Shown: positions 1 through 59,332 of the stretch, piece after piece
Position numbering within the stretch: the stretch's first letter is position 1
How the letters are laid out: every line of letters starts with the position of its first letter
DNA from: a virus
Strand: one strand, 5' to 3'
Length of the DNA: 64,000 bases
Virus record (IMG/VR): IMGVR_UViG_3300038461_000101
Coordinates: 24,724 to 88,723 of that record
Translations under genes and position numbers: made by a program
Notes under the pieces: model-generated
Seen by the model: the letters and a program-made list of their open reading frames with translations, nothing else
Told to the model about the DNA's origin: nothing
Database searches by the model: none

Positions 1-549
1 AAGCGTCGGCCTGACAATCCAGTGATTTGTGTCTCGTTCCATTGGGATGGATCTGGTGTGGCTCCGGAAGCCGGAAATGCTTGGGAACACTATCGCCGGT
101 TCCTACCTGAACTGATGAAGCATTACAAAGTTATCGGCCATGGACATCCCAAATTCTTGGAACAACTGACCTATGCCTACACAAAATTGGGGATCCCTGT
201 GGTCAATGACTTCGAAGATGTGATGCAGCAAGCTGATGTGTACGTGAATGATTGCAGTTCGACCATGTATGAGTTCTTAGTCACTGGTAAACCGGTCGTG
301 GTAATGAATGCCCCTTGGTTTCGTAAGAATGTGTTTCATGGCATTCGTTTTTGGGATTACTCTGAGCCAGGGCCGGTCGCTGAAGGACCCGAGCAACTGA
401 TTGAAGCCATTGAGCGTGCTCTGGTCTATGACGAGCACGATATTCGAACCCGTAGAAGATACGTGAAAGATCTGTATCCTAACTTAGGCTCAGCCGCCAA
501 GACTGCAGCCCATGCCATCCGAGATTTCTGCTACGATCCCGAAGACTAA
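1..549 (+). CDS. GT-B fold protein, CDP-glycerol glycerophosphotransferase-like C-terminal domain (5'-truncated)
   Basis: Frame open from base 1; HGHP, then ADVYVNDCSSTMYEFLVTGKPVV, matching the D.L.TD.SS..EF...GKP pattern of TagB/TagF-like proteins. Confidence 0.6.
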   Translation, partial: KRRPDNPVICVSFHWDGSGVAPEAGNAWEHYRRFLPELMKHYKVIGHGHPKFLEQLTYAYTKLGIPVVNDFEDVMQQADVYVNDCSSTMYEFLVTGKPVVVMNAPWFRKNVFHGIRFWDYSEPGPVAEGPEQLIEAIERALVYDEHDIRTRRRYVKDLYPNLGSAAKTAAHAIRDFCYDPED

Positions 550-557
550 GGAGTTGA

Positions 558-2051
558 ATGAAAACAATTGACGCTGCTGATCTATTCTGCGGAGCCGGTG
601 GTACATCCACCGGCCTTGCTTTAGCTGTTGAAGAGATGGGTATTCATTTGAAGTTGCTTGCCATCAATCACTGGCAGTTGGCTATTGATACCCATAGTGC
701 AAACCATCCTAATGCGATCCATCAATGCGTGAACCTGGATAACGTGGATCCTCGCAAGGCTGTGCCTTCGGGGAAACTTGACATCTTGATTGCTTCTCCT
801 GAGTGTATGCACCATAGCAATGCTCGTGGTGGCCGACCGATGAACGATCAGTCCAGGGCCAGCGCATGGCTGATACTTCGATGGGCTGAGGCTTTGTTCA
901 TTCGCAATATCCTGATTGAGAACATCCCTGAGTTCATGGATTGGGGGCCATTGAGTGCCAAGGGTAGACCAATCAAGAAGCTGAAAGGTACCACCTTCAG
1001 GGCTTTCATTGAGTCTCTGAAGTCTTTGAATTACCATGTCGATTACCGGGTGATCAACTGTGCTAACTATGGAGATCCTACCACTCGGCATCGGCTATTC
1101 ATCATGGCAAGTAAGGCTCGCAAACCAGTATGGCCGGAGCCAACCCATCTGCAGCACGGTGCGGATATGTTTGGTACTTACCAGCCCTGGAAGACTGCCA
1201 AGGAGATCATTGATTGGGATCATAAGGGCAAAAGTATCTATGCAAGGAAGAAGCCGCTATCTCCCAACACAATGCGCAGAATCATGGTGGGTCTTACCAA
1301 GTTTGGTGGTGGTGCTTTTGTAATAGGCCAGCAAACACCTGCAGCTCCTCGATCGGTGGATAGGCCATTACCTACAGTAGCAGGAGCTGGTGCAATTTCT
1401 CTAGTGCAACCTTTCATCTTTGAGATGGAGCATACTGGCCTCAAGTCTGGTGATAAGCATCGCTGCCATAATATCGACCGGCCACTACCTACCGTAACCG
1501 GTAAGGGACAATGGGGATTGATTGAGCCCTATCTGGTGGAATTTCATGGCACTGGAGAAGATGGCCGGGAAAGAGTTCGCTCTCTGGATGAACCCATGCC
1601 AACCGTCTTGGGAGCCAATGTGTATGCCCTGGCTGAGCCAATGCTTATTCAGATGAATGGCACAGATCCAGGCCAGCTTGACCATTCGGCCAAGTCGATC
1701 AATGAACCGGTGCCCACTCTGACTGGTGGGAATAAGTTTGCCCTGGCACAACCCTACATCGTTGAATATTATGGGTCAGCCACTGCAGTTCCCATCACGG
1801 ATCCATTGCCAACAGTTACCAGTAAGAGCCGGTTTGCCCTGGCAGATCCCATTATCATGGAAGACAAGAATGGCAAGAGATATTTGGTTGATGTTCTCTT
1901 CCGAATGCTTTCCATCAAAGAGCTTGCTGCTGCAACTTCGTTCCCTGCTGACTATATCTTCAAGGGAACTCACAATGATGTCGTAAAACAGATCGGTAAT
2001 GCTGTGCCAGTCAACACTGCAAGAGCACTGACACATTCCCTCTTGTCATAA
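558..2051 (+). CDS. dcm: DNA (cytosine-5)-methyltransferase
   Basis: Motif I DLFCGAGG, catalytic SPEC, ENI, R.RLF, C-terminal KQIGNAVP; AAGGAG RBS. Confidence 0.93.
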   Translation: MKTIDAADLFCGAGGTSTGLALAVEEMGIHLKLLAINHWQLAIDTHSANHPNAIHQCVNLDNVDPRKAVPSGKLDILIASPECMHHSNARGGRPMNDQSRASAWLILRWAEALFIRNILIENIPEFMDWGPLSAKGRPIKKLKGTTFRAFIESLKSLNYHVDYRVINCANYGDPTTRHRLFIMASKARKPVWPEPTHLQHGADMFGTYQPWKTAKEIIDWDHKGKSIYARKKPLSPNTMRRIMVGLTKFGGGAFVIGQQTPAAPRSVDRPLPTVAGAGAISLVQPFIFEMEHTGLKSGDKHRCHNIDRPLPTVTGKGQWGLIEPYLVEFHGTGEDGRERVRSLDEPMPTVLGANVYALAEPMLIQMNGTDPGQLDHSAKSINEPVPTLTGGNKFALAQPYIVEYYGSATAVPITDPLPTVTSKSRFALADPIIMEDKNGKRYLVDVLFRMLSIKELAAATSFPADYIFKGTHNDVVKQIGNAVPVNTARALTHSLLS

Positions 2052-2097
2052 TCTGGATACAGATGTATCATCTAGTCACCAGGAAAGGAAAGCTGCT

Positions 2098-29080: not shown

Positions 29081-32000
29081 TCAATTGTTTAGGTCCTGGG
29101 CAACGGTTCGAATAATGAAGTCTCGAATCTTTTCATTGCCGATGAAGATCTGAATGACCTGTGGTGTATTCCCGCCACCAGTTCCCCTTGCAAGAGATAG
29201 GGAATGGTTCAGGGAAGAACCCTTGAGCTGGCTATTGGGGGTGACATTGAAACCACCACCAGGAAGGGCCGTAACCAATTCTTCATAGCCAGTTGGAATA
29301 CCAGAGAGACTATCACCAACAATGGCTGAGCCACCAGGTCTTACTGAACCACCAGCAGCGCATTTGACAGAGTTATGGGTGAGCATTTTCTCTGCATAAT
29401 ATTCATGCTGGCCGCCAACAACCATGGTGTAGGTTGGAACTTCAACTTCTGTATAGGACATGTCGATGATAGATTCATAACCTTCTTCGAAGGTAAGGAT
29501 CTCATCTCCAATTTCCAGACCACCAATAATATCCAGACCATAATAGGATTTTTCAGAAGCCAGGGGATCAATGGATTTCCAACCGTGGCGAGTATACATT
29601 GGGTGATCGTTGGTTAGATTGAGAATCTGACCACTGGCAAACTTGATAGTCCAAATACCTTCTCGGATCGGTTGGATAAGGCCATGTACTTCAACACCTT
29701 CCTTTTCGAAGTGATCATTCTTTCCCATGACTATATCGCCAAGTTTCACATCTTCAATGGCCCTTTCGGAGCCATCACCCATCAGGATCTTGGTACCAGC
29801 CAGAAAGCAGCACAATCTTCCTTCATCGGTTGGAATAGGAAGACCAAGAGCTTTCATGATGTCTTTCCAGGCTTGCACTAATCCAGCGTCAAGAAGAGCT
29901 ACTGCTCCAGCAGCCTTGGCAGCATCAGTTGAGAGATCAAGTTCAGTTGTGGACAGATCCTTTTGGTCCTTGGCAGCCTGAGCTGCAATACCAGCGGACT
30001 CTGTAGCAAGTTTCTGCTGTTCAACGAAGTTGGCCCGGGCAAGCTTGATGGATTGCAGTTCCAGATCCATCTGTACTGCATAGAACTCTTTGGCCTTATC
30101 TAACTGTTGCTGTTGAAGTTGCTTGGTCTCTTCGAACTGTTTGATCTGCAGTTTGTATTGTGCTTCCTGGAGAGCCCACTGTTGTTTTTGATAGCCAAAC
30201 TCAGTCTGACGTTGACTGGTTTGCATGTTGTATTCAGTGATGTTCTCTTTCTGCTGCATTTCTCCGAGTCGACGTTCACGGCCAGAAGTGAAACGAGCTT
30301 GTTCTTTGTACATAGTCTGGCTGAAGCCAAATTGCTGAGCAGCCATAGCCGTATTGAAACCAAACTCTTCGGTTCCTTGTGCACGACCAAGAGCCATTCC
30401 TTGGGCCTGTAACCCCATGGATTGATAGAACTGACTGGACTGCAGGTTGATTTGTTTCTGCTGCATTCCAAAGCCGAATTGGGTTTGTGCAATTCCAAGA
30501 GCACGCTGAGCATCTTCAATACCCCATTGTCCACCACCCTGGGAAGTGAAACTACCAGTACCGGGAATACTCCAGGAAACCTTACCAGTATTGAGACCGA
30601 AATTGCCACCGGTTTGCGGATTGACCAAACCAGCATAGTTCTGTAATCCCACTCCTGTAGTAAAGGCAAGATTAGCTGCAATACCTTGTTGCTGAACTCC
30701 AACTCCAGCCATGGCAAGTTCATAATTCTTGGCAATCGCAGTCTGTTGTACTTTGATGGATCCACCGGCAGCAGCGGCGGCCATGTAGGGATTATTTTCC
30801 CAACCAGCTCCGAAAATCTTTCCAGCCATTTCACTGGAACTTGGACCACCAAGAATACCCAAACTAGATGTTCCATAGGCCATACCAGTAAGTTGGCCGC
30901 CTGGAGTTACATCAGTTCTGGCAAGATTATAGGCAGGCATGGTTCCACCACCCATAAGAGGTAGGGGTGCCATCTTGTTGTAATTGATGCCATACTTGGC
31001 AGCAGCCACACCAAATCCAAGTGGGTTCTTCTGAGAGATCATCTCCCACATGGTATAGTCCTGGAAAGGAATAGTATATCCAGTGGGAGCTACATCCTGA
31101 ACCCTTTTGATTGCTTCAGGACCAGCTAGGGGCGCAGTAGGAGCAACGGCTGGAGGAGTAATCCCAATATCATTATTGTTGAGAGCATTGATGAGATTGT
31201 CTCTCGTTGAAGGTTGAGGTGAAAGACTACTTGGGACCGCAGTTGCTCTTTCTCCTCCAATGTTTGCAAATTTCAATACATGATTTACTACATCCATAAT
31301 AGATTTAGGTATTGGATTCTTGGAGAAGTAGTCTTTTTCAGATATGCCTGGACTTACTGAAGGCTTATTGCCTTGAGCAGCTTTGGCCGCCAGATCTGAC
31401 TTGAGTTTTTGAAGATCGACCGAAGTGTTTCCAAGAGTGGCAGCAGTTTTTGTAATGGTCAATGGAGGGGTGGATAATGTAGTAGCAGGACTACCATTGA
31501 TAGACTCATGACCACTTGTAGTAGTTGGAGGTCCAAAAGCAGCAGCGATTTTAGCAACCATTTCAGCATCACCCGCTGTAGCTGCCTGCATACCCATGGT
31601 ATTGGCGAGATTATCTCGGCGTGCTTCAAGACTAGCATAGGAATTGGCCTGATTTTGCATTACTTGAGCAGCACCAATTGTCTGCTGCATAGGTGCAAGA
31701 TCAAGAGGATTGATACCTGTAGGAATGCCAAGCATTGTCTGAGCAGTAAATTTCTGAGAAGCTGCCTGATAATATTGAGTTGTTGTCTGATCCAGACCAC
31801 CCCATGCCTGAGCCCAGGTGTTCATTTGTGTCATTTGGGCCTGAGAAGGAGTCCCTGAAGTAGCCAATCGCCCCATCTCGGACCATCGCAGACTTGGCAT
31901 ATTTCCAAGAGTAGCAGCACCTGCAGCGAACAGTTTCTGTTCTTGCATACTCATTGGAACTTTCTCATTGTTGAGTTGATTGGCTACGATCGTAGCGGCC

Positions 32001-35000
32001 AGGCTTGGTTGATTTCTGGTACCAGTGATCTGTGCTTGAGGATAACCAAGACCATAGAGAAGGTTCTGGTAAGCTCCTAAGTAATCAACACCCTGAGCAT
32101 ATCCCTCTGCCATACGTTGTGCCCCAACCTGAGAGAGTGGAGCTGTTGGATTTTGCACCATGAAAGTTGCAGGAGCAATCAGAGTTTCCTGGGTACCCTT
32201 ATATCCTTTGTCTACCATGTTGGTAGCAAGGGCTGCAGCGGCCTCGGTTGGAGATCCTACAGAAGCCATGAAACCCATTGCTTTGGCAAAAGATGATGGA
32301 GTACCAGTTTCACTAAGAGCAGCTGTAGCTCCCTTATACATTGTACTGGATTGCTGGATAGCAGCCAGTTTTGTAGCAGATCCCTGGATACCAAGAGCTG
32401 TACCGATCTTGGCAGTCTCGGTTGAGAAGTATGCTTCTATGTCCGATCCCATGAAACCATAGGTCAAGTTGGTATTATTACCTGGCATTGCTCTTGCAGC
32501 GGCATAACCTACCGATGTAGTATCCCGGGCCTCAGCAGAAGCAACAAAGGATCCTACACCTACTGCCAATGCTGCTGCCAATCCTAACTTAGCTCCAGCA
32601 CCTGGATTGGTTTCTGCAAGTTTCGGGAATGCACTTTGGAGATAGAACTCACTGGCACCGGCTGCAGCTACACCTGCAAATATTGATTGACCCAATGCCA
32701 TAGGTGTGGGGTTCTTGGCACTCCAAACATCCATCATCTGTTGAGGAGTTTGTCCACCATAACGGGCTGCCATTTGTGAGGCTGCATAAGCTGCCGGAGA
32801 CACAAAGGGTGCATTGGCACCAAGAACACCATTGGCATAATTCGCCATAGCCTGCTGAGCCTGCTGAGCTTCAGGGGCACCATAACCAACACCTTCAGTG
32901 ATAATGCCAGCAATACTTCTGGCATACATCAAGCCAAATCCACCAAGAGCTTTACGAGCAAATCTTGCAAATGGGGACATGGCAGCATTGACAGCTATGG
33001 CTTTGTCGCCCTGCATTTCGGCTGATGTTTGTTCGAGTAGGCCCTGGTCAGCCTGAGTAATCATGCCACCATTAGCTTTGGTTCTGGCAGAGATCTCAGC
33101 CACAGTTGCCACATTAGAAGCAAGTCTGGACTCAGCAAGTGGACCCTTGAGGGCTGCTTGAGCTTTCTCAAAAGCTTCACCAGTACTCTTTACGGCAGCG
33201 GCATGTTGAGTTACTGATTTGGTATCATCTCTTAAAGCGGCTGCATGGGCTACTGCTGTCTTCTGTAATTCATCCACGGCTGCCTGGGCAGCTGGATTGA
33301 GTTGTGTTCTCTTCTCAAAGGATCCACTCAAAACATCAGCACCACTTTCACCCTTGATGGCTTTCAGTGTACCGGCCATCTGAGTGAAGGAATCTGGTAG
33401 GGCTGCCTTGGTGACATCACCAGTTAGACCCGACTGCATTCTCACAACTGCATTAGCTACACCAGCAAGTTCTGGATTGGTTCGAAGGATCCCTTGAAGG
33501 GCTTGGGCTTTTTCTTGATAACCCATTCCTGGATTGAAGAGGCCTCGTTGGGCCATTGCCGCATTGAGTTTGGCAAAGTCCTGTCCTCCAGTACCTACTC
33601 CAGAGACCAGATTATTGATTTGGTTCAGCTGCTCAACATTGCTTGTGATCGAACCAAGAACTCCCTGCAGACCAAAACCTACATTGATTGCATGACCTAA
33701 CTGGCCGGGAGCTTCTTCAGCAGCCTCAGTATTTTCAATCATTGCCCGTTCACTAGGCGATATATCAATAGGATCTGCAAAGGAAGTAGCTACAGATCCC
33801 ATGATCACTTTCTTCTTGATATTCGCCAATGTCTTGATACGGGCAGCTTCAGGGGCCAACTTACCAATTAGTCGAAGAGCATTGGGACCACCAAGCCCCT
33901 TACCTACACCTTCAACAATTTCTTTTGTGGTGGGTGGATTGCCAGTGCGAGGAAGAAGATTCTCTGCTTCCAGAATGTCCTGAATACGATTGACCGTTTC
34001 AGTGCCAGTAACATCCTCACCCATATCGGTTACAGGACCAGCCATGCCAATGGCAGCCAGGGCTGCTTGGATTGCATCCTTGGCTACTCCATGGCTCATT
34101 CTGAATATCTGTGAAGCTTCATTCCCGAGCATAACTTTCTCGACATCGGGATTGTAGGTCGTGGAACCAGGTTCAGCCAGATAGGAACTTACTCGCTGAT
34201 TTTGGTTATTGAAAACAGGGATCTCGTTGGTTCTGAAATGACCAATGATGGTATCGCCTTCGCCACCGTAGAAGTTGATCCTTCCACCTTGGCGAGGAAT
34301 GATTGTTTCACCAGCCTGAACCGTAATATCTCCATGACCTTCAGCATCTTTTCGACCATGTAGATCTTCAGGACGAATGGGGCCACCAGTATCGAATCGC
34401 TTATCACCACTCTCTGATTTCTTGGGCCACTTTGGAATTTCAGGGCCGCCTGATTCTGGCTTAGGAGGCCAGGGATAGGCTGTCTCATCACCAAAGGGAA
34501 TTTCTGGAATGTCATCCCAATTGAAGTTATCAGGTCCATCCAGAGGAGTTGGAGTTTTCGGAAGTTGTCTGGCCGCATCTCTCTTCGCTTTTTGGTTGGC
34601 TTTCCATTCTGCAAGCCATTTGGCATATTCTGCAGGATCTGAAATGTGACCAGATTTTGTCGGCCCATTGCCAGATGTTCCAATTGGAAGATCGGTAGAT
34701 GTAGTGGGTGGACCCATTGGAGGAAGACCCTGATTGGGTACACCCGTAGGAAGTGAAGCCAAAACTTCTCCCTGCAGGGGAGTAAGCCTCAAAGCTGATT
34801 CAATTACTTTAGTAGGAGTAACTTGACCAAGTGCATTCTTGGCAAGCTGATTGGCACCCTTATGGAGCAATTGGATGGTCTTCCCCATCTGTGCTTCAAC
34901 TTTTTTGTCAGCCAGGACCGCTGCATCGGCAGGTGACATTGGGGTAGCAGCCCTTGCCCCATAGGTTCCCATGAGTTCTTCAAGAACTGCTTCAGGAGCC

Positions 35001-38000
35001 ATTCCTTTGGCTTCAGCGAATGGTGTGATCAGGTCTCTTATTTCCTGGTCGGCATAGGTATAAGCATCGACTGGAGAAATACCTCTGGACACGGCTCGTT
35101 GAGCATACATATGAGCCTTGTAATCAATGGCACTGACAACGGTATTTTCCTCTGGAAGAGTATAGGGAATGCCATAATTGTTTGCCAGGGTTATCAGTTG
35201 ACTGCGGGTAATGCTATCGGGAATATCTCCAATTGATTTGGAGATCATGGCTGCAGGAACATTTACCTTGCGTTGAAGAAGGTTGATGATACCAGCCGCC
35301 CGAGTAATGGCTTCAACGTGGAACTTGTTCTCAAAGACGTTCCTTGCAATCCTGGACTCGTTTAGGAACTTCTCTTCTTGAGATCCAGGGGCCGGTTTCT
35401 GATATTCCAAACCTTCTGCTTTTCGAGTGGCTGCAGTAACAAAGGGTAGGAAAGCTGGTAGGCTCATCATAGATTGGGTGAATGGTTTGCGTTGTCTCTG
35501 ACCAAGTTCTGTCGAGACATCTGCCAGTCGATGCAACCCATGCTCAGCCAATTCTTTGGAGCTGTAGAGATTCCCCGTGTCTGGATTTACTGGATCACCA
35601 GTCAGAGTATTGATATGGTTGGTGATTGCAACCAGATACTGGCTGCTCAGATCCTTGGAGGGATCGGCGGCTTCCAGCTTCTTTTGAAGAATAGATTCCT
35701 GGCCTGGATAACTGAATGCCTGAGCCAGAAATTCAGGACTGGCAATTTCAAAACCTTCTCCCTTACCACCCACCTTGATCTTGGTTGTCATCATGGCTGC
35801 GATAGAACCAAGAGCATTCACTACCTGGGGCTGGTCAAGTGTTTGTAGTGGAATTGCCATTCGGTTGGTTCGGCCACGTTCATTGACCACGTTGCTACCA
35901 ATAATTAGCTCGGCCTCACCAGTTCTTTCATTCAATCCAAAGCGAGACTTGGCAATGGCACCGGCCCAACCAACACCTTGGGTTTCCTGACCAAGATTTG
36001 TCTTATCCAAGGGGAATTGATAGAAGGACTGCATTCCTGCATAGATCCGAGATTGAGCTTCTTCGGAGTAACCAGAAGCAGCCATTGTAGGAATGACAAC
36101 TCGACGGATGTTATAGGATTCGCCCATGCCAATTTGGGCATACCAGGAGTTCAGACCGGCACTAATCACATCCCCATATTTCTTCCAACCAGCCTTCTTG
36201 ATGGTTTCTCCAATGACGTTGAAGTTGGGATCCACTAGATCATTGACAGCCTTTACAGCACCACTGGCAAGATCGGCTTGTTCAGGGCGGAACATCTTTG
36301 ACTCAATATCGAAGGTTCCTTTGGTAGTGAGGCGTTGACGGTTCTTCAGTTCCTGGAATGCTTTGCCTTGTTCAGCATTGCCACCCATGACAAAAGCACC
36401 TACCACAGGATCATAGTCAAAGTCACCTACACCTACGCTGGCAAATTGCTGAGAGACAAAGAGAGCACCCTTGAACTCTGGACTGTGAAGAAGCTGGTTC
36501 ATGAACTTGCCACCAGTGCGGTTGCGCATCTCCTCGTCACCAAGGAGATTGACACCCATAATACTTTCCAGTTCAGTGCCCTGCGGATAACGAAGCATGA
36601 AACCCTGCAGTGGGCCACCCATGGACAATTCCTTCATAGCCTGCTTCATATCCTTGCGCCGAACACCACCTGCTTCCAGTAACTTTCGGCGTTCTGCAGG
36701 TGGCAACCAGACTTCATCAGGGCCTAAGGCACCTAAGTAACCAAACCGACCACCCCAACCAGTAGGCATAGGTCGGTTATGGACAGCCTTATAAGCCTCA
36801 CCACCACCTTGGAAAATATCTCTCCATTGATCGAACAAACCTTTTACTGCAGTCTGACCATATTCCTGGAGTTTCTCAGGAGCTGTGCCAGAGAAGGCTT
36901 GGAGTTGGGCAAGTTTCTCAATGCCCTTACCCCACGTTCTGGTAACACCACCGATCTCTTCTCCGGTAGGGCCCTTGAACTGCAGTTCCTTGACGGTCAG
37001 GGGGTTCATGTCATAGGTATTGGAAAGCGGAAAATAGAGTAAGCGATTATCACCTTCCTTGATGTCAAGGATCCCGGCCATCCGATCGAGGGTTTCCTCG
37101 GTCATATTGCGACCACCACCGGTCGCTCCAACGATACCAGCCATAGCCAGGGCTTTGCCCTGATCTACTTCGATATAGGAAGTAGGGAGAATAGCGGGGG
37201 TTTGACCTTCACTTACACCCATCTGCCAGGAAACAAATGCTGAGGCTGCGGTGAGTGCCTTAGCCTGGGCTCCCTGATGCTGGATTGGTTTTGAAACATC
37301 CAGCCCCATCTCTGAAGCAAATTCTGGAAATTTGGCTGTAATAGATCGGGCCAACTCTTCATTGGCACCATGCCCATGCACAAATTCCAATTGCCGGGGA
37401 AGAGCTGTACGAGCGATCATTGCATGACCAGAAGCAATTTGAGAAAGGGTGATCATGTCTGATCGACCCAATGCTTCCTGCCCAATCAATGCTTTGGCGG
37501 CTGCCTGAACATCAATTGTTCCACCTGTTTTGAATTGGTTCAGAACAGCGTCAATGTCTGCCTGGGTAGCTCCTGGTTTTTTGCCTCGAACACTTCTGGC
37601 TGTAATCTGTTGAATGAACTCAAGGTTGGCCGGATGAGTAGGCCCATAGGGTACTTCGATGTTTGGGAGATACCCAATTCCGAAACTCTTCAGGTTGAAT
37701 AGATTGCGTCTTCGTTGTTTCTCATTTGCCATATCGACATCAACGAAGACCTTCTGGAATACATCCAGACCAAGGCCCTCTGAAGGTTCTTTCCAACCTC
37801 CACCAGCTGCATTGAACTTTTGGGCGATCTCTTCCCAATCGGTTGTCTCATTGCTTTTTCCCAACCAACGAGACACTTTGTAGGCTGCATTGCTGGCATC
37901 GCCTTCTGTTTGTCTACTATAGGAACGGAAGATTCCTGCCAATTGCGATCGTGATTGGTATCCTAAGATACCTTCGGTGATTGCAGAACCACCTTTCATT

Positions 38001-39481
38001 TCCCCGGTCACGTATTGAACATTTAGATTGCCAGTGCCCAGGGGAACTTTCAATCTTTCACCAGTTGGGGTGAGAGAGTATTTGTAGCCAAGACCACCTA
38101 CTTTGGTAGGCACATCATAGCCAACCCCACCAATGTCAAGTGAAACCTTATCAATGCCAAGAGCACGAACAGCCCATCCGGTTCGAGCAGTTATATCTCT
38201 GGCAACATCTTCAGTGGATACAGCATTGAGATCCGTCATTGGCACAGGAGCCCCGGTATCCTTGTGCATGAAGGCTGGAATAGTCATTGAGATTTGAGTT
38301 GGAGAAAATTTGGAAGATCCTGTTTTGAAGGTTAGTGGATCACCATTGATTGTTCCTGCACTATAGGTATGCCCAGGAAGGTATCGTTTCCCACGAATGT
38401 CCTTGATCTGAAGGGGACTGTTTGGACCAGCCAATGATCGTATATCTTCAATGGGAACATTGACTGGCTCAGTAGTAGGATACCCATATGTCTTTTCTCT
38501 TTGGGCTCCTGGCATGACCATCGCAAGACCACCACCACCAATGAATGTGGGGGTGAATAAGACATTTCCAATCTCATTTACTCTTGGTTCGGCTTCTCCT
38601 GGAACTCTCAAAGTGGCAATTCCATAACTTGGAGCATATCGGTTCATGATGGGTTGAGGCTGGTTTTCAACCAGTTCATCACGACCTTCGAGATGGATCC
38701 AGTGATAGGGTTTGGCTCCGCCACGACCATAATCAATGCTTGGAACGCCCACCATCTTTTCAGCATTTCGAAGACCATAGACCATATCAGTGGTCGCATC
38801 ATATTCACCAATGGGACTGAGGTTGGCTTTCTTATCCAATGCCATACCAATCCCACGAGCATCTTGCCAACGAACACCAGGTGCATGAAGAGGATCTATG
38901 GGGCCATAGCCGGTCATCAATTTCATGTTCAGCATCTTGAGAGCATCCTGCTGCTCGTAGGGTGCCAATTTGGTTTGGTCAAATTTTTGGGTTACTACAT
39001 TGATGCCCTGGACTTCCCTATTCTCAACCGCCTGGAAGGAGTTCCATGGAGTACGACTATATTTACGAGTGTTAAACTCGGCATTTAGAGCAGTATTAGG
39101 ACTTTCTCCTATACCCTTATAGAATGTTGTCCAGGCATTTTTGATAGAAGATGCAAGATTCTCCAAAGGTGTAGTGATTTCATCTCGAACATCATTTTTG
39201 GAAAAATAAGTAAGGGTATGGGTGGATGGAATTACAACAGCACTACCACGTTCTTCCTGGTTCCCGATCATTGGCACAGGGCCATACAAGTTGCGCTGAG
39301 CTGAGATGGAGAAGTCAAAATCCATCGCATTTTCAGTATCCTCCCCAAAACCAATTGAGACCCGCTCCATATGTTGGGAGGGGTCCATTTCAGGGTGGGC
39401 TACATGATATTGTGGCCCTAAATATTTTTCGAGAATACTCAGGTTGTCAACCTGAAGCGTGCTTCGACGTACTCTACTCAT
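29081..39481 (-). CDS. 3466-aa tape-measure protein with N-terminal putative two-barrel RNA polymerase and C-terminal Hint domain
   Basis: Follows tail tube and G/GT chaperones; Ala/Gln/Gly-rich helical C-half; RYP...GDFDYD near aa 965-1024; Hint domain near the C-terminus. Confidence 0.75.
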   Translation of the reverse strand: MSRVRRSTLQVDNLSILEKYLGPQYHVAHPEMDPSQHMERVSIGFGEDTENAMDFDFSISAQRNLYGPVPMIGNQEERGSAVVIPSTHTLTYFSKNDVRDEITTPLENLASSIKNAWTTFYKGIGESPNTALNAEFNTRKYSRTPWNSFQAVENREVQGINVVTQKFDQTKLAPYEQQDALKMLNMKLMTGYGPIDPLHAPGVRWQDARGIGMALDKKANLSPIGEYDATTDMVYGLRNAEKMVGVPSIDYGRGGAKPYHWIHLEGRDELVENQPQPIMNRYAPSYGIATLRVPGEAEPRVNEIGNVLFTPTFIGGGGLAMVMPGAQREKTYGYPTTEPVNVPIEDIRSLAGPNSPLQIKDIRGKRYLPGHTYSAGTINGDPLTFKTGSSKFSPTQISMTIPAFMHKDTGAPVPMTDLNAVSTEDVARDITARTGWAVRALGIDKVSLDIGGVGYDVPTKVGGLGYKYSLTPTGERLKVPLGTGNLNVQYVTGEMKGGSAITEGILGYQSRSQLAGIFRSYSRQTEGDASNAAYKVSRWLGKSNETTDWEEIAQKFNAAGGGWKEPSEGLGLDVFQKVFVDVDMANEKQRRRNLFNLKSFGIGYLPNIEVPYGPTHPANLEFIQQITARSVRGKKPGATQADIDAVLNQFKTGGTIDVQAAAKALIGQEALGRSDMITLSQIASGHAMIARTALPRQLEFVHGHGANEELARSITAKFPEFASEMGLDVSKPIQHQGAQAKALTAASAFVSWQMGVSEGQTPAILPTSYIEVDQGKALAMAGIVGATGGGRNMTEETLDRMAGILDIKEGDNRLLYFPLSNTYDMNPLTVKELQFKGPTGEEIGGVTRTWGKGIEKLAQLQAFSGTAPEKLQEYGQTAVKGLFDQWRDIFQGGGEAYKAVHNRPMPTGWGGRFGYLGALGPDEVWLPPAERRKLLEAGGVRRKDMKQAMKELSMGGPLQGFMLRYPQGTELESIMGVNLLGDEEMRNRTGGKFMNQLLHSPEFKGALFVSQQFASVGVGDFDYDPVVGAFVMGGNAEQGKAFQELKNRQRLTTKGTFDIESKMFRPEQADLASGAVKAVNDLVDPNFNVIGETIKKAGWKKYGDVISAGLNSWYAQIGMGESYNIRRVVIPTMAASGYSEEAQSRIYAGMQSFYQFPLDKTNLGQETQGVGWAGAIAKSRFGLNERTGEAELIIGSNVVNERGRTNRMAIPLQTLDQPQVVNALGSIAAMMTTKIKVGGKGEGFEIASPEFLAQAFSYPGQESILQKKLEAADPSKDLSSQYLVAITNHINTLTGDPVNPDTGNLYSSKELAEHGLHRLADVSTELGQRQRKPFTQSMMSLPAFLPFVTAATRKAEGLEYQKPAPGSQEEKFLNESRIARNVFENKFHVEAITRAAGIINLLQRKVNVPAAMISKSIGDIPDSITRSQLITLANNYGIPYTLPEENTVVSAIDYKAHMYAQRAVSRGISPVDAYTYADQEIRDLITPFAEAKGMAPEAVLEELMGTYGARAATPMSPADAAVLADKKVEAQMGKTIQLLHKGANQLAKNALGQVTPTKVIESALRLTPLQGEVLASLPTGVPNQGLPPMGPPTTSTDLPIGTSGNGPTKSGHISDPAEYAKWLAEWKANQKAKRDAARQLPKTPTPLDGPDNFNWDDIPEIPFGDETAYPWPPKPESGGPEIPKWPKKSESGDKRFDTGGPIRPEDLHGRKDAEGHGDITVQAGETIIPRQGGRINFYGGEGDTIIGHFRTNEIPVFNNQNQRVSSYLAEPGSTTYNPDVEKVMLGNEASQIFRMSHGVAKDAIQAALAAIGMAGPVTDMGEDVTGTETVNRIQDILEAENLLPRTGNPPTTKEIVEGVGKGLGGPNALRLIGKLAPEAARIKTLANIKKKVIMGSVATSFADPIDISPSERAMIENTEAAEEAPGQLGHAINVGFGLQGVLGSITSNVEQLNQINNLVSGVGTGGQDFAKLNAAMAQRGLFNPGMGYQEKAQALQGILRTNPELAGVANAVVRMQSGLTGDVTKAALPDSFTQMAGTLKAIKGESGADVLSGSFEKRTQLNPAAQAAVDELQKTAVAHAAALRDDTKSVTQHAAAVKSTGEAFEKAQAALKGPLAESRLASNVATVAEISARTKANGGMITQADQGLLEQTSAEMQGDKAIAVNAAMSPFARFARKALGGFGLMYARSIAGIITEGVGYGAPEAQQAQQAMANYANGVLGANAPFVSPAAYAASQMAARYGGQTPQQMMDVWSAKNPTPMALGQSIFAGVAAAGASEFYLQSAFPKLAETNPGAGAKLGLAAALAVGVGSFVASAEARDTTSVGYAAARAMPGNNTNLTYGFMGSDIEAYFSTETAKIGTALGIQGSATKLAAIQQSSTMYKGATAALSETGTPSSFAKAMGFMASVGSPTEAAAALATNMVDKGYKGTQETLIAPATFMVQNPTAPLSQVGAQRMAEGYAQGVDYLGAYQNLLYGLGYPQAQITGTRNQPSLAATIVANQLNNEKVPMSMQEQKLFAAGAATLGNMPSLRWSEMGRLATSGTPSQAQMTQMNTWAQAWGGLDQTTTQYYQAASQKFTAQTMLGIPTGINPLDLAPMQQTIGAAQVMQNQANSYASLEARRDNLANTMGMQAATAGDAEMVAKIAAAFGPPTTTSGHESINGSPATTLSTPPLTITKTAATLGNTSVDLQKLKSDLAAKAAQGNKPSVSPGISEKDYFSKNPIPKSIMDVVNHVLKFANIGGERATAVPSSLSPQPSTRDNLINALNNNDIGITPPAVAPTAPLAGPEAIKRVQDVAPTGYTIPFQDYTMWEMISQKNPLGFGVAAAKYGINYNKMAPLPLMGGGTMPAYNLARTDVTPGGQLTGMAYGTSSLGILGGPSSSEMAGKIFGAGWENNPYMAAAAAGGSIKVQQTAIAKNYELAMAGVGVQQQGIAANLAFTTGVGLQNYAGLVNPQTGGNFGLNTGKVSWSIPGTGSFTSQGGGQWGIEDAQRALGIAQTQFGFGMQQKQINLQSSQFYQSMGLQAQGMALGRAQGTEEFGFNTAMAAQQFGFSQTMYKEQARFTSGRERRLGEMQQKENITEYNMQTSQRQTEFGYQKQQWALQEAQYKLQIKQFEETKQLQQQQLDKAKEFYAVQMDLELQSIKLARANFVEQQKLATESAGIAAQAAKDQKDLSTTELDLSTDAAKAAGAVALLDAGLVQAWKDIMKALGLPIPTDEGRLCCFLAGTKILMGDGSERAIEDVKLGDIVMGKNDHFEKEGVEVHGLIQPIREGIWTIKFASGQILNLTNDHPMYTRHGWKSIDPLASEKSYYGLDIIGGLEIGDEILTFEEGYESIIDMSYTEVEVPTYTMVVGGQHEYYAEKMLTHNSVKCAAGGSVRPGGSAIVGDSLSGIPTGYEELVTALPGGGFNVTPNSQLKGSSLNHSLSLARGTGGGNTPQVIQIFIGNEKIRDFIIRTVAQDLNN
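29372..29809 (-). mobile_element. mini-intein / Hint domain (146 aa, no endonuclease)
   Basis: Starts CFLAGTKILMGDG, block B LTNDHP, ends YYAEKMLTHN followed by Ser. Confidence 0.85.
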
Positions 39482-39756
39482 TTTGCGGCTCCTGGCAGGT
39501 TAGGAATTGCATTGAATAATTGCGAGAGATCTCTGACTATATCCTGCTCTAACAGCCACATATGAGGTTGGTCGGCTAACCCGCCCGGGTAATATGCTAC
39601 ATGGTATCTTTCACACCGTTCGAACTCCAACAGTACGTCTGGTTTTTCGATAGGGTCTTTGACTTTTAGGCCCTGAGATAATTCGTTTTGCTGACCGAGA
39701 TAATTTGTTACTACTTCAGAAATATGCTCTAATCTATCCGCTACAACCCTTCCCCC
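39478..39756 (-). CDS. tail assembly chaperone, frameshift (T) part
   Basis: In the -1 frame relative to the upstream chaperone; PGGLADQP..W motif; stop overlaps the tape-measure start. Confidence 0.65.
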   Translation of the reverse strand, partial: GGRVVADRLEHISEVVTNYLGQQNELSQGLKVKDPIEKPDVLLEFERCERYHVAYYPGGLADQPHMWLLEQDIVRDLSQLFNAIPNLPGAAK

Positions 39757-40175
39757 GAGGTTGGTACCCATAGAGGGTTCATTTCCAGAACCTTATCTCC
39801 AATCTCGATGGCAACAACCGGTGGAAGTGCGGCCCAGGCACGATCGAAGGCGTTCTTATCAGTAAGGCGTTCGTTGACAAACTTGAACAACGGATCGCCT
39901 TTTTCATTGATGATATTGCAGGCACAGAGGGTCAGGAAGACTTCCAGCCGACGAATATCATCATAGGAGATCTTCTGAGTAACCTTGACCATCCGGCCAT
40001 CATATTCACGGGTAAAGTCGGCAAATAAGGTGTTGCGTTGTTCCACATCGCCTTGGGTGGCTTGCCGAACAGTGATTACCGTAGCGACAGCAGCATCGCC
40101 GGTATTCTCCAGGGCCTTATCACTCTCAACGAGGGTAAAGTCCTTCTTCTTGGGGGCTGACAACTGAATTGGCAT
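39741..40175 (-). CDS. tail assembly chaperone (G)
   Basis: Between tail tube and tape measure; ends in the slippery GGGGGAA. Confidence 0.7.
   Translation of the reverse strand: MPIQLSAPKKKDFTLVESDKALENTGDAAVATVITVRQATQGDVEQRNTLFADFTREYDGRMVKVTQKISYDDIRRLEVFLTLCACNIINEKGDPLFKFVNERLTDKNAFDRAWAALPPVVAIEIGDKVLEMNPLWVPTSGEGL
39750..39756 (-). other. programmed -1 frameshift site GGGGGAA
   Basis: TCG GGG GAA GGG TTG TAG; the -1 frame stays open to 39478. Confidence 0.7.
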
Positions 40176-40244: not shown

Positions 40245-41297
40245 TTAGCTCGGCCAGGTGTATTTCGAAACGTTGTTCTTCAGGATGAACTGGCAGTACG
40301 GGGTACTGTCCAGAGCAACGCCAGCGAAGCGCAGCATGACGCTTTGGGCACCGGCCAGGGCGATCCCACCGACCTGAGTCATCATGCACTCGGGGGCTTT
40401 GACACGCAGGGCATATTTCTCGGAATGCCCAACCATCTCCGTGGAAGAAACTGTGTTCACATCCAGGGATGCGGTATAGGGCTTGCCACTCCAGAGCTGC
40501 ACACCTGAGCCAGCTCCGGTCAGTACCTTACGGTACAGGGTGGGATCATTCCATTTCACCATGATGTCAAAGGTCAGGCGACGCTGAACGATCGTCACAT
40601 CTTCGATGTAAGGATCGCCAAAGATGCGCTCCTGGCGGAGATCCAGCGGGACGTTCTGGAAACCGATTTGGGCCTGCACGATCGGCAGTTCGTTTCCGTC
40701 GATCTTGATGAAACCATCTGTCTGGCAGGCGACCGGGATGGACTCCCAATCTTCCATGGAGGCTGCCCAGGTCCAATTCGCAGGATCTGGATCAAGGTAG
40801 AACTCCCGGCCAATCACATCCAAACGACAGCCGATGGGGGCATCATTCGGAAGGGCCAGGGTTGCGCCAATGACCTTGCAGTCTTTGAAGAAGATACCCA
40901 TATCGGTATCCACATTGTTATCCTTCTTAGGAACCATCTTGCGGAAGGACATCCAAGGCACAAAGTTCGTGTCCGAGGGGGCAAACGAGAAAACGTGCGA
41001 ATACACGTCCTCGTAATCGTGATCAGACTCAACGTACCCGAGCAGGCCATACAAGAGCCAGCCGAACGAGTCGATCAAACGGGGCTGAATGGACATGCCA
41101 CCAGCCACAACAGGTCCCGCCTTGTACGGGAATGTAGGAACGGCGACGCCTCCTACTTCGGGTGGGCCTTCCCGTACATCGTCAACGGCATCCAAGTCCA
41201 CCATGACAGCCCGATGACGCTGCCAAGCAGTAGCAATGGAGCCTTTACCGATCTGAGGGCCAAACCCGACCAATCCTTGCTGAGCTGATACACTCAT
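40245..41297 (-). CDS. major tail tube protein
   Basis: 350 aa, GGAGG RBS, G..LYGLLG...Y.H.F pattern, position. Confidence 0.75.
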   Translation of the reverse strand: MSVSAQQGLVGFGPQIGKGSIATAWQRHRAVMVDLDAVDDVREGPPEVGGVAVPTFPYKAGPVVAGGMSIQPRLIDSFGWLLYGLLGYVESDHDYEDVYSHVFSFAPSDTNFVPWMSFRKMVPKKDNNVDTDMGIFFKDCKVIGATLALPNDAPIGCRLDVIGREFYLDPDPANWTWAASMEDWESIPVACQTDGFIKIDGNELPIVQAQIGFQNVPLDLRQERIFGDPYIEDVTIVQRRLTFDIMVKWNDPTLYRKVLTGAGSGVQLWSGKPYTASLDVNTVSSTEMVGHSEKYALRVKAPECMMTQVGGIALAGAQSVMLRFAGVALDSTPYCQFILKNNVSKYTWPS

Positions 41298-41319: not shown

Positions 41320-41865
41320 TTACGGTCTTCCAGTAAGGGCAGCCCATAGGACTTTTCCTCGGAAGATATATGCTTTAGGGGGACCACCACTCTCGAAGAA
41401 GGTATTCTCGTAGACGAATATAAGTGAGGCTTTCTCTCCGAACTCATCCTTGAGATCTGAAACGTAGGTGTTGGCAACCGTCTGCATGACCATGCCAAGG
41501 CATTGATAGGCATTTACATGGGCAAGTTCTTCAGACATGGCATGAGCAGCCACGTAGAAGCATTCCACTCGCACAACTCCACGCCGCCACCATTGTTCTC
41601 CGCCGCCAAATTCACGTACTGGTACTTTCCAGGCAATTTGTTTTGAAAACCCATCCGTGGTCGTTAGGCCATCGTTATAACTTGGGTTTTCATGATCGCC
41701 ACCGGCTACACCAATTTGGATGTTTTGCTTGATCCGGTTTTCCTGCAGGAGGCCCTTCTTCACGACACTGGCCCTCCAGAGTTCGGAGGGACTTACATCC
41801 GTGATCATTGCTTTGGTAAGGTCACGAACCATCCGGTCGAGCAGAAGGTTGACGATCTGCGTCAT
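41320..41865 (-). CDS. tail completion/terminator-like protein
   Basis: Position between adaptor and tail tube. Confidence 0.5.
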   Translation of the reverse strand: MTQIVNLLLDRMVRDLTKAMITDVSPSELWRASVVKKGLLQENRIKQNIQIGVAGGDHENPSYNDGLTTTDGFSKQIAWKVPVREFGGGEQWWRRGVVRVECFYVAAHAMSEELAHVNAYQCLGMVMQTVANTYVSDLKDEFGEKASLIFVYENTFFESGGPPKAYIFRGKVLWAALTGRP

Positions 41866-42527
41866 TAGTGCATTGCCTTTTGACTTGGCGGAATACGTTG
41901 CAGTTCGAGTTCAAACCGCTTCATGAAATAGGTTGACATCTGCTCAGCCGGATTGTCGGTTGGTTTACCTGAATCTACCTTGGTATCAAACTGGCGAATG
42001 CTTGCCGTTTGGGTTGCCGTATTGAGAAGACAGTAAGATGCTGCGAAATAAGTAAGGGCTGTAGCGGCCATTTGGGGAGTGTCGATTGGATCTTCGTCAT
42101 CTTCCGGCTTGGCCCAAGTTGCTGAGTAATACACTGTGGCACCGACTTCTCCATCAATTACGGCTGCAAGTGAGACATAACCTGCAGGGTAAAGCAACCA
42201 ACCATTTCCCCTAGTGGGGATCCTGGCCTTATCAACTTGCATGTTCAACTTTTCCAAGAAGACACTGTTTGTCTCATCGTAGACAGCCTCAATGTCGATC
42301 ACATCATCCGGTAAAGCCGTAGCCTCGCCAGAAGGTTTGATCGTGAACGTAGAAGGCTTGAAGCATCTGACCGTAATAGCGTCAAGGGCAGCATGAACAG
42401 CATCTTTGAGTAGATCGGCCTCATAGATCTGGCCTGCGGTTTCTGGCCCACCTGATGTTCCAGGAACGACCGTATCACCGAGGATCCGTACTATTTTGGC
42501 TTTCAATTCTGCAAATGTGATATTCAC
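41865..42527 (-). CDS. head-tail adaptor
   Basis: TFAELKAKIVRILGD N-terminus, LP.D...IE.V; directly after the capsid gene. Confidence 0.65.
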   Translation of the reverse strand: MNITFAELKAKIVRILGDTVVPGTSGGPETAGQIYEADLLKDAVHAALDAITVRCFKPSTFTIKPSGEATALPDDVIDIEAVYDETNSVFLEKLNMQVDKARIPTRGNGWLLYPAGYVSLAAVIDGEVGATVYYSATWAKPEDDEDPIDTPQMAATALTYFAASYCLLNTATQTASIRQFDTKVDSGKPTDNPAEQMSTYFMKRFELELQRIPPSQKAMH

Positions 42528-45006: not shown

Positions 45007-46572
45007 CTAATGGGTGGGTTTGATCCCGCCACTTCCACCACCTGGATCACCAAAACCACCACCAGGAGGTGGGACAATATCTTTCTCGGAACGGATCTGA
45101 GCAAGTTCGGCTTCTGCATCTGGAGTATCTCCAAGCAGTTCAATGAGATGTTTGATGGAGCCAACCTTGTTCTTGGCACGAATGGCAACTTCCTGTACCA
45201 TTCCATCCCGATCACGAGGTAGAGTGGGCGACCACTCAATAACAAGTTGAACCTTCAGGTCGTCTTCAATGATGTCATTCAAACCGATAACTTGCATCAT
45301 TTTCAGAAGGATCTTGCCAAAGGTGGTAAATCCAACTGACCAGAAGATACGCTCAGCTTCAACGTGCGATGTAAGCGGCCACATACGGGCATTGAGTGTG
45401 ACCGAAGATCTTTGGGAGCCCTGATCGACACCATCTGCAACTGCAGGATGGTTGACTTCAATCCGGTAATAATCCACCAGGGACTTGTTGAAATTTAGAA
45501 TTGGAAGAGTGGCTGACTTGTTGTTTACGGCCTGCATATCGGGATTGCTTTCATTCCCGGTCAAGCCACTGGTGGCTCCAAGGTTTACGATCGGTCTTCC
45601 ATCACCGATCTGGATTGTTTCCAGAGAACCACGAATGTTGCGAACCCAAATGTAGGCATGTGTATCTTCACTGACTGCATCGCCTACATCTGCTTCACGC
45701 AGGTTGATCTCACGGACAAGCCCCTTTACCATATCGGTAATGATGGACTCGCCACGGAATTTGTTGAGACGAATGTGTGGGATATAGACTACAGGAACAA
45801 CCCCAAAGGGGTTGGTATTATCTTGGATAAGACTGGTACCATTGATATTGACTTCATGGAGAGTTCGGGTCCAGTGCTCGATATACCACCAGGAAATATC
45901 GTTGCCATTGGCTGAGTTGTATCCCTCATCTTTGAACTCACCATATTGCTTCAGTTCATCCCAGGTCAACGATTTGATGATCCAGCATTCCTTCAGATTG
46001 TAGTAGTCCGTTCCATCAGGAATACCAACAAACTCTTGGGGTAAGGGAGCACTGATAAGGATTTTCTTTTGTTCAGGAAGATAGGTTGCACACCAGACAC
46101 AACCCCCCAAATATTGAGATTGAATTGCATTTTGCATGAACAGCGATCCTGCATTGCTATCGGCAAAGCAAGTTGTCAGGGCTTTCTCAATGCGAGTAAC
46201 CTGCTCTTTACTTGCTTCAGTAGGATCGGCGTGAATCTTGATAGGCATGGCCCCCTGATGGATGCTGTCGAGAGAGGTGCCCAAAAGCGTTACGGCATGT
46301 TTCTCACAGGTATTACGGATAGGGTTGATGCGGATAGGGAATTTTTCAACAGCCTTTTTCGATTTAGGATCCACTGTGGTTTCTGCTAAATTGCTCCCCT
46401 CATACCAGTCACTCAGCATACCATATTCTTGAAGTTGGATATTCCAGGTGGTAATTGGAAAATTATCCAGCATCTCCAGCGTCCAGGGTGTTGAGGCGAT
46501 GGAGGAGATGTTCTTTAGGGTTTCAAGAAATGGCACTGTAACTGGTGCTGCCGTAAGAGGGACTGCAGGCAT
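45007..46572 (-). CDS. portal protein
   Basis: 521 aa after terminase; NPFGVVPVVYIPH...GES, W...LPRD; AGGAG RBS. Confidence 0.82.
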   Translation of the reverse strand: MPAVPLTAAPVTVPFLETLKNISSIASTPWTLEMLDNFPITTWNIQLQEYGMLSDWYEGSNLAETTVDPKSKKAVEKFPIRINPIRNTCEKHAVTLLGTSLDSIHQGAMPIKIHADPTEASKEQVTRIEKALTTCFADSNAGSLFMQNAIQSQYLGGCVWCATYLPEQKKILISAPLPQEFVGIPDGTDYYNLKECWIIKSLTWDELKQYGEFKDEGYNSANGNDISWWYIEHWTRTLHEVNINGTSLIQDNTNPFGVVPVVYIPHIRLNKFRGESIITDMVKGLVREINLREADVGDAVSEDTHAYIWVRNIRGSLETIQIGDGRPIVNLGATSGLTGNESNPDMQAVNNKSATLPILNFNKSLVDYYRIEVNHPAVADGVDQGSQRSSVTLNARMWPLTSHVEAERIFWSVGFTTFGKILLKMMQVIGLNDIIEDDLKVQLVIEWSPTLPRDRDGMVQEVAIRAKNKVGSIKHLIELLGDTPDAEAELAQIRSEKDIVPPPGGGFGDPGGGSGGIKPTH

Positions 46573-59272: not shown

Positions 59273-59332
59273 CATGCCCCACTTTTCCAATTGGAAGGTG
59301 GGGTAAATTTTATGCCATGCACGGAGGTGCAG

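Follow-up and report, generated by a model that had tools for sequence, protein, structure and literature searches.

A putative single-chain two-barrel RNA polymerase in the tape-measure-position protein of a phage from peat metagenomes

The window analysed here is a stretch of 64,000 nucleotides (positions 24,724 to 88,723 of the IMG/VR record IMGVR_UViG_3300038461_000101), and our subject is one giant gene within it. A minus-strand open reading frame (ORF) at 29081-39481 starts with ATG and, over 3466 codons, encodes a protein of 3466 amino acids (aa). We consider it probable that the first ~1300 residues of this protein are a single-chain RNA polymerase of the two-barrel (cell-type) kind, fused to the tape measure, which is injected and transcribes the first phage genes. 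Catalysis, packaging, injection and the early-gene role would hold by analogy with gp96 of Thermus phage P23-45 (Chaban et al. 2024, PMC10770324; parts of that paper are used here and below). A reading made previously from the letters of the window, below called the sequence-only reading, had announced a 3466-aa gene in the tape-measure position, and the ORF agreed with it.

The RxP motif, the DxDxD loop and two lysines are the signature of two-barrel RNA polymerases, and the canonical metal loop of the family reads DFDGD. The sequence-only reading had located RYP at 36584-36592, where R964-Y965-P966 indeed map, and the gap of ~53 aa between RYP and the aspartate loop was also correct (53 residues from P966 to D1020). 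It had assigned the string GVGDFDYDP to 36410-36427; the loop G1019-D1024 does lie there, but the string spans aa 1017-1025, so that these coordinates cover six of its nine residues. For the lysines it had pointed to TKVGGLGYK (aa 459-467). This segment holds the conserved K467, but K460 is a lysine in only 11 of 22 sequences, and the second conserved lysine is K496, inside TGEMK.

Conservation was analysed in a family obtained with a HMMER scan of aa 301-1500 through 1.84 billion representatives (clusters at 50% identity). At the homologue cut-off of E ≤ 1e-3 the scan returned 23 other proteins (E 3.4e-185 to 4.4e-4), giving 24 clusters with the query. Overall identity of the homologues to the query was 18-39%. 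DxDxD stood in the same alignment column in 24/24 sequences, query counted, and 22 of the 24 had a single DxDxD in about 3000 aa. The counts for the aspartates and RxP in Table 1 refer to all 24 sequences, and those for K467, K496 and K460 to the 22 that cover the region. K898, D1081, N1124, Y1154 and D1159 were likewise almost invariant; in the local-pair MAFFT alignment of 24, N1124 was kept in 22, Y1154 in 23 and D1159 in all. The last ~25 residues of alignment A3 are misplaced. The positions between the aspartates varied freely, with F/Y/W/L/S/H/E at the first and Y/A/R/F/K/I/W/V/L/M at the second, and such variation beside invariant aspartates gives the pattern of purifying selection on a metal site. 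At the level of sequence, the conservation pattern is the one expected of a metal-dependent two-barrel polymerase.

The same columns bear on the idea that the module descends from a polymerase but has lost catalysis and persists as a structural remnant. The inter-aspartate residues of this protein (F and Y) deviate from canonical DFDGD, as such a remnant might; however, the three aspartates, the proline and the two lysines (K467, K496) are invariant and the arginine is kept in 23/24 at this low identity, as the sequence-only reading had anticipated for the Asp, Arg and Lys positions. We regard a dead remnant as extremely improbable.

Alignment A1 (24 rows) served to build an AlphaFold2 model of aa 281-1320, which showed a mean predicted local distance difference test (pLDDT) of 78.6 and a predicted template modelling score (pTM) of 0.75. 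Foldseek against the PDB gave only RNA polymerase entries among the matches listed (best E 6.8e-4), including the non-virion enzymes of AR9 and phiKZ, bacterial beta', the poxvirus enzyme and Pol I. A Foldseek-independent structure search over 48,161 representative chains placed two-barrel polymerases at ranks 1-16. QDE-1 was first (Z 9.8, 391 aligned, root-mean-square deviation (rmsd) 8.6, model 13..1009), followed by Pol II Rpb1 (Z 9.6), beta' of Mycobacterium tuberculosis (Z 9.5) and vaccinia Rpo147 (Z 9.3). After these came chains of Pol I, archaeal, Pol IV, plastid, Pol III, phiKZ, African swine fever virus (ASFV), AR9 and RDR2 enzymes; P74 gp62 was found with Z 7.9, and Pol V held rank 16. 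P23-45 gp96 followed at ranks 18-19 (Z 6.1 and 6.0), with model 8..941 against chain 331..1117. Lower rows resolved the two halves of the model: barrel-only proteins (CDC48-N, designed double-psi beta-barrels (DPBB) and expansins) lay on model 622-783 with Z 4.7-6.5, and beta subunits on model 7..419 with Z 5.2-5.3.

A second comparison over the top 995 chains of Foldseek ranked maize RDR2 first (Z 11.7, rmsd 4.1, 290 aligned, model 13..976) and gave Z 10.0-10.4 for QDE-1. The beta', Rpb1 and Rpo147 chains aligned on model 478..1018 with Z 9.3-10.2. Long conserved helices at model 822-878 fall in the region of the conserved segment aa 1116-1159, and this segment is a candidate for the bridge-helix/trigger-loop region.

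When the beta-like half was folded alone (aa 281-760), its pLDDT was 69.2. Ranks 1-9 of the 48,161 chains were then all second-largest RNA polymerase subunits (Z 6.0-4.8, model 3..425), from vaccinia, Pol I, phiKZ, ASFV, plastid, Pol IV, AR9, Xanthomonas and Pol III; we take the listed chains to be beta subunits from their lengths and the usual chain naming, which the tool does not state. Barrel-only proteins came next after rank 9 and spanned model 22..424 of this half, which indicates a barrel split by a helical insertion. Foldseek returned RNA polymerase entries in 48/49 of the matches listed for this half (best E 4e-3). PolD was absent from the best 50 rows of either chain-wide search, which we take as no evidence either way. 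These searches support a predicted structure with two double-psi-barrel modules, the C-terminal one of beta' type and the N-terminal one of beta type, each matched separately, as had been predicted from the sequence. By sequence position and fold matches, the metal loop would lie within the beta'-type barrel and the two lysines would come from the beta-type barrel.

Among solved structures, RDR2 (Z 11.7) and QDE-1 (Z about 10) come closest to the model; we therefore considered an active polymerase with a different job, such as making replication primers, copying RNA like QDE-1/RDR, or serving as a genome-pulling motor. The gene content leaves room for a primer-making role: Pfam on the 20 larger non-structural ORFs recognised no polymerase and no primase or DNA polymerase family, just a DnaB-like helicase and an Mgm101-like protein on the replication side, besides a C5 methylase, two radical-SAM proteins and methyl-/glycosyltransferases. 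However, the phage single-chain RNA polymerases and the RNAi polymerases are placed in one clade, so a likeness to QDE-1 is expected for a DNA-dependent enzyme too, and the studied phage relatives in that clade, gp96 and crAss-like gp66, transcribe DNA (PMC10770324). A different job is therefore improbable in our view.

BFVD, which holds predicted viral structures, returned uncharacterized giant phage proteins as best matches of the model, followed by viral RNA polymerase subunits. The top one was part 2 of A0A075BUT7 from Microcystis phage MaMV-DC (E 1.8e-9, TM 0.37/0.44). The second best was part 1 of A0A8S5SD80 (E 1.3e-8), a 'minor tail protein' of Siphoviridae sp. ctnpt50; this gut siphovirus protein may be another unrecognised fusion of a tail protein with a polymerase.

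Gene order supports the tape-measure part. On the minus strand the large terminase (TerL) is followed in turn by portal, adaptor, tail tube, an overlapping pair of small ORFs and the giant gene. Other large structural ORFs lie downstream, as do genes for a collagen-like fibre, a glycosyltransferase and an endolysin. The giant gene is thus in the classical tape-measure place of a long-tailed phage. For the tail tube protein the Atlas assignment is strong (Table 1), and Pfam Phage_tube_2 gave only E 0.0087, below its cut-off. No sheath gene was recognised in the block. The two small ORFs share a GGGGG run in their overlap, where the second is read in the -1 frame relative to the first; the stop codon of this second ORF in turn overlaps the start codon (ATG) of the giant gene. 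The overlap at 39741-39771 on the minus strand contains CTCGGGGGAAGGG; from its sequence it is a candidate programmed frameshift of a tail-assembly chaperone pair.

The composition of the protein was as the sequence-only reading had described it, with a Pro-rich linker followed by an Ala/Gln-rich helical half. Proline made up 9-10% of aa 1401-1800, compared with 2-6% in most other 200-aa blocks, and the linker is a weakly conserved stretch dividing the polymerase part from the helical half. Across aa 1801-3200, alanine was 12-23% in each 200-aa block and glutamine reached 18%. Inside the GGFGLMY block of this half, G2180, G2181, G2183, M2185 and Y2186 were invariant in the full-length alignment A4. 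A Hint-like insert of ~146 aa lies 96 aa from the C-terminus of the giant protein. Pfam Hom_end_hint matched it with E 5.8e-7 and 30.2 bits, slightly below the cut-off of 32.1. A similar start motif is present at the equivalent place in 3/23 other homologues (P0007, P0012 and P0013), and Hint families were also matched in other family members; the insert looks like a mobile or optional element.

Table 1. Coordinates of the features discussed, as window positions (L002 marks another coordinate frame); A2-A4 are alignments of the family.
Feature	Residues	Position	Strand	Basis or remark
Whole giant gene	1-3466	29081..39481	-	Polymerase module, linker, tape-measure-like half, Hint insert, C-terminal tail
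N-terminal region	1-286	38624..39481	-	Family-conserved; A4 columns invariant from L21 on
Predicted beta-like module (DPBB-B + helical insertion)	about 287-701	37379..38623	-	Domain-only model
K467 (G-x-G-x-K), first conserved lysine	467	38081..38083	-	Lys 22/22; invariant in A2, A3
K496 (T-G-E-x-K), second conserved lysine	496	37994..37996	-	Lys 22/22; invariant in A2, A3, A4
Predicted beta'-like module	about 758-1298 (model 478-1018)	35588..37210	-	Structural alignments
Predicted DPBB-A barrel	about 905-1053 (model 625-773)	36323..36769	-	Matched by barrel-only proteins
R964-Y-P966 motif	964-966	36584..36592	-	Arg 23/24, Pro 24/24
G1019-D1020-F-D1022-Y-D1024, predicted Mg-binding loop	1019-1024	36410..36427	-	Each Asp 24/24, Gly 22/24
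Helical segment (GMGxxYNxRR ... YQxxLD)	1116-1159	36005..36136	-	Candidate bridge-helix/trigger-loop region
Pro-rich linker	about 1560-1800	34082..34804	-	Composition, Pro 9-10%
Tape-measure-like Ala/Gln/Gly-rich half	about 1850-3224	29810..33934	-	Composition, family-conserved blocks
GGFGLMY block	2180-2186	32924..32944	-	Top conserved motif of the tape-measure half
Sole strongly hydrophobic segment, candidate membrane segment	2294-2318	32528..32602	-	Kyte-Doolittle 19-residue window, maximum 1.65
Hint/mini-intein-like insert	3225-3370	29372..29809	-	Starts C-F-L-A-G-T, ends T-H-N then S
Small ORF pair, candidate tail-assembly chaperones	144 aa + 97 aa	39741-40175, 39478-39771	-	No family match
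Tail tube protein		40245..41297	-	Atlas: best 30/30 named matches are Phage_tube_2 clusters, 0.98-0.99
SU10-type adaptor		41865-42527	-	Pfam E 8.9e-7, above cut-off
ORF in the place expected for the capsid gene	478 aa		-	No family match
Portal		45007-46572	-	PHROG 64, E 8.7e-15
Large terminase (TerL)		46739-48397	-	PHROG 2, E 8e-5
Mgm101-like and radical-SAM genes		9890-10777, 11207-11998; L002 12448-13392	+	Pfam
Single tRNA-Arg (TCT) gene		59199-59273	+	
TTCCAATTGGAA copies		5781, 10787, 18440, 25463, 34678, 44988, 54179, 59285, 62107		12 bases each; 4 elsewhere in the genome

Several results weigh against the interpretation as a tape-measure-fused polymerase. By sequence, no method connects the protein with RNA polymerases of any family: Pfam and PHROGs gave no polymerase match for the whole protein or family members (7 proteins), phmmer against the PDB found nothing at E ≤ 10, and a PDB profile search with A1 returned 17 rows at E 0.34-5, which were helical/coiled-coil noise on the tape-measure half. 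On the structural side, just 2 Foldseek PDB rows reached E ≤ 1e-3; the beta-like module alone peaked at Z 6.0 and had no Foldseek row at E ≤ 1e-3. Z scores of 10-12 are within the range which the tool calls common, so the structural scores are middling, and the models were built on alignments of just 21-24 sequences. The case is carried by the uniform match lists and their agreement with the conserved residues. For the C-terminal half, Pfam (TMP_2, TMP_3, PhageMin_Tail, Tape_meas_lam_C) and PHROGs gave no tape-measure match for the protein and 6 relatives; the nearest named Atlas clusters were all tape-measure families, with a score of only 0.81-0.82. The tape-measure identity of this half thus rests on position, composition and a weak Atlas lead, not on a family match. 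A promoter search (16-mers, ≤3 mismatches, ≥5 neighbours, either strand) found no promoter-like repeated motif and gave only a 12-bp palindrome, the only strong repeat, and the collagen repeats of the fibre gene. Finally, the storage and passage of a folded ~1000-residue enzyme in a tail tube are hard to explain.

The missing tape-measure family and the low Atlas score would also suit a protein which is not a tail ruler, namely one that is ejected or internal and whose gene happens to follow that of the tube, comparable with the giant virion polymerases that crAss-like and N4-like podophages carry. The neighbourhood argues otherwise, as a Phage_tube_2 tube gene and the -1-overlapping small ORF pair stand directly upstream. 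Within the tail block this is the only long, helical ORF; those next in size have 991 and 898 aa, the 898-aa one being the collagen-like fibre. The C-terminal half is moreover Ala/Gln-rich with a hydrophobic segment. We consider a protein other than the ruler very unlikely.

The relatives show how general the fusion is. Among the 23 homologues, 18 were 2734-4030 aa long and 5 were shorter (424-1868 aa). Ten were looked up, and all came from metagenome or run assemblies and were called 'hypothetical protein' or had no name; several homologues sit on 82-90 kb contigs. When JGI metagenomes were scanned for two conserved blocks of the tape-measure half, GGFGLMY being used as a search pattern, 44 loci were obtained. 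Complete relatives, defined as 5'-closed ORFs of >2500 codons, numbered 21 (2881-4024 codons, stop to stop). DxDxD was present in 21/21 at residue ~1010-1480, as GDxDxD in 20 and LDLDLD in one, and RxP stood 42-67 residues before it in 20/21. A hidden Markov model (HMM) of the tape-measure part matched 21/21, whereas the HMM of the polymerase part reached E ≤ 1e-5 in 11/21; the 10 relatives missed by the latter kept DxDxD in 10 cases and RxP in 9. This result indicates that the polymerase part diverges faster than the ruler part. No complete tape-measure homologue without the polymerase signature was seen (n=21), the other matches being 5'-truncated and uninformative. The fusion is therefore the rule in this family, and the polymerase is never lost in complete members.

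The kept fusion also bears on a polyprotein, from which the polymerase would be cut off at the Pro-rich linker and work as a non-virion enzyme in the cell, with only the C-terminal half in the particle. The long, weakly conserved linker between the halves would suit such a cut, tape-measure proteins of several phages are proteolytically processed, and the genome has no other RNA polymerase candidate to serve later genes. However, an enzyme from a late structural gene would come too late for early transcription, and the retention of the fusion in 21/21 complete relatives, despite the faster divergence of the polymerase, argues for a physical link. Within P23-45, moreover, the polymerase domain is found in virions as part of full-length gp96 (PMC10770324). 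A polyprotein is unlikely on this evidence.

Searches of other collections gave no further relatives. Within 50,697 deposited phage genomes, tblastn with aa 281-1320 gave nothing at E ≤ 1e-3, and blastn was likewise empty; P0024, P0017 and TerL gave nothing against the same collection (blastn/tblastn), so no family member was found among the deposited genomes. An IMG/VR pattern scan produced 7 matches, 0 of them confirmed, and the sole return of a word-index protein search (proteins of 1906-6066 aa) was the protein itself.

The gene appears intact in independent data. Contigs from two peat-metagenome runs of two studies covered the whole gene (all 30 bins) at ≥99% identity, no indels or joints were found in them across the gene, and pieces of these contigs bridge the linker, for example at 33682-34988. 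The stretch 34300-39481 was represented by 0.89-0.90 of its sampled words in two peat-metagenome runs (two studies), and seven further peat runs contained ≤0.20 of them; one of the two best runs may have yielded the window. No RNA run was listed among those containing the stretch, which is uninformative on expression.

Based on these observations and the analogy with gp96, the phage probably injects its own transcription enzyme, and the following sequence of events is proposed. D1020, D1022 and D1024 would bind the catalytic Mg2+, while K467 and K496 from the other barrel would contact the substrate, as in two-barrel enzymes generally. The Pro-rich linker would join the polymerase modules to the ~1600-residue Ala/Gln-rich tape-measure half, which would be assembled within the tail tube with the aid of the upstream chaperone-like pair. 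With a helix rise of 1.5 Å per residue, the C-terminal ~1470 residues (Hint insert excluded) would form a ruler of roughly 220 nm in the tube if fully helical. At infection the tape measure would exit the tail and help to form a conduit through the envelope, in which the hydrophobic segment 2294-2318 and the GGFGLMY block may take part at the membrane. If a tape measure has its N-terminus on the side of the tail nearest the head, the polymerase would be the last part to exit and would sit beside the DNA; it would enter with the leading DNA end and, without need of the host enzyme, transcribe the first phage genes. With no second phage polymerase seen, the later genes would fall to the host enzyme or to the same injected molecules.

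The genome is one contig of 88,723 bp whose ends overlap by 10 bases. A motif-only test of these 88.7 kb, which a very diverged enzyme could escape, revealed no second RNA polymerase candidate. Among ORFs of ≥300 aa, DxDxD occurs only in the giant gene, and the four other ORFs with DxDxD are of 110-185 aa. The Mgm101-like (Rad52-type) protein (E 5e-33) and the two radical-SAM proteins are encoded in the presumed early or middle region.

The perfect 12-bp palindrome TTCCAATTGGAA has 13 copies in the 88.7 kb, 9 of them in the window against 0.01 expected, and only 2 one-mismatch copies. Spaced about 1-11 kb apart, some copies fall inside ORFs, among them one in the giant gene, and others between genes; the palindrome was absent from all 44 related metagenome loci. 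Its role as a hairpin-type promoter was dropped, as copies lie inside ORFs and orientation and position are inconsistent. Palindromes of 6 bp are strongly avoided genome-wide, with no occurrence of TGGCCA (42 expected), GATATC (31), ATCGAT (20), ATGCAT (20), GAATTC (19) or GCCGGC (17), and TTAA occurs only 12 times; CGATCG is enriched (50 vs 24.5 expected). The avoidance suggests a host rich in restriction systems. A cyanobacterial host, considered from the site avoidance, the CGATCG enrichment and the structural match to MaMV-DC, was not kept, the runs with the stretch being labelled peat metagenome.

A more far-reaching and tentative proposal, which we hold as a possibility to keep in view, is that this large family represents a second origin of the fusion, with no sequence similarity detected to the Thermus one, in environmental phages of ~85 kb whose tail-delivered enzyme is the only phage RNA polymerase. 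If so, the enzyme would run the entire phage-specific part of transcription while tethered to the tape-measure conduit in the envelope, and it may double as a motor drawing the genome into the cell. Were polymerases captured by tape measures repeatedly, tail-delivered transcription would count as a general feature of long-tailed phages and not as a thermophile curiosity. The putative polymerase would also widen the known diversity of two-barrel polymerases. For annotation, G-x-G-x-K ... T-G-E-x-K ... R-x-P ... G-D-x-D-x-D offers a signature to look for in very long tape-measure genes, and the phage would offer a mesophilic system, with no second phage polymerase found, for studying how a large enzyme is stored in and delivered via a tail.

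Compared with known systems, MaMV-DC A0A075BUT7 and ctnpt50 A0A8S5SD80 showed structural likeness and no sequence similarity in the tblastn search of the deposited phage records. The crAss-like phi14:2 gp66 (6vr4) is likewise an injected giant single-chain two-barrel phage polymerase; its match to the beta-like half was weak (Z 3.7), crAss-like proteins in BFVD gave E 3.5e-3 to 4.2e-2, and the similarity was far below that of QDE-1 or RDR2. Unlike the protein described here, gp66 belongs to a podophage and is not fused to a tape measure. The multisubunit beta/beta' enzymes (bacterial, archaeal, eukaryotic, poxvirus, ASFV and phiKZ/AR9 non-virion) matched the beta' half with Z 9-10.2 and the beta half with Z 4.8-6.0, and their RxP, DxDxD and two-lysine signature is present here; in contrast to them, both modules are in one chain here and no Pfam RNA_pol family was detected. 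QDE-1 (2j7n, 7y7p) and RDR2 (7w82, 7w84) were the best structural matches over both barrels in one chain, with Z 9.8-10.4 and 11.7 respectively, but identity in the structural alignments was 9-11%, and here the gene belongs to a phage structural module and is fused to a tail protein.

The closest design is that of gp96 (P23-45; P74-26, G20c, TSP4; PDB 8h2m, 8h2n). In that 5002-aa tape measure the N-terminal ~1200 residues are an active RNA polymerase with DFDGD at residues 779-783, found in virions within full-length gp96; the proposal is that it reads pre-early genes from AT-rich promoters before gp64 takes over, and the discussion of the paper calls the association of polymerase and tape measure previously unsuspected (PMC10770324). 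A full-text literature search for tape-measure-fused RNA polymerases gave only P23-45 and three close relatives, as far as that paper goes outside its supplementary survey (PMC10770324). Both giants carry a single-chain two-barrel polymerase, predicted in the present case, at the N-terminus of a protein in the tape-measure position; the beta-like module precedes the beta'-like one, about 800-1000 residues separate DxDxD from the start, and the structures match with Z 6.0-6.1. However, hhalign of A1 and A4 against gp96 aa 1-1200 and 1-5002 gave a probability of 0.1% (E 0.42 and 0.58), with sensitivity limited by the entry of gp96 as a single sequence; the new lineage which the sequence-only reading had thought possible agrees with this value, obtained for the polymerase part and the whole protein alike. 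The loop here is DFDYD and not DFDGD, the length 3466 and not 5002 aa. Pfam found no metallopeptidase domain in the giant protein, a Hint insert is present, the motif test found no gp64-like partner, and the protein comes from peat metagenomes and not from a thermophile. The model is structurally nearer to RDR2 and QDE-1, with gp96 and P74 gp62 ranking below QDE-1, RDR2 and beta'. New here is a sizeable lineage with no detectable similarity to gp96 and no partner enzyme found; already known, from experiments in the Thermus phages (PMC10770324), is the design itself, in which a polymerase and a tape measure share one chain.

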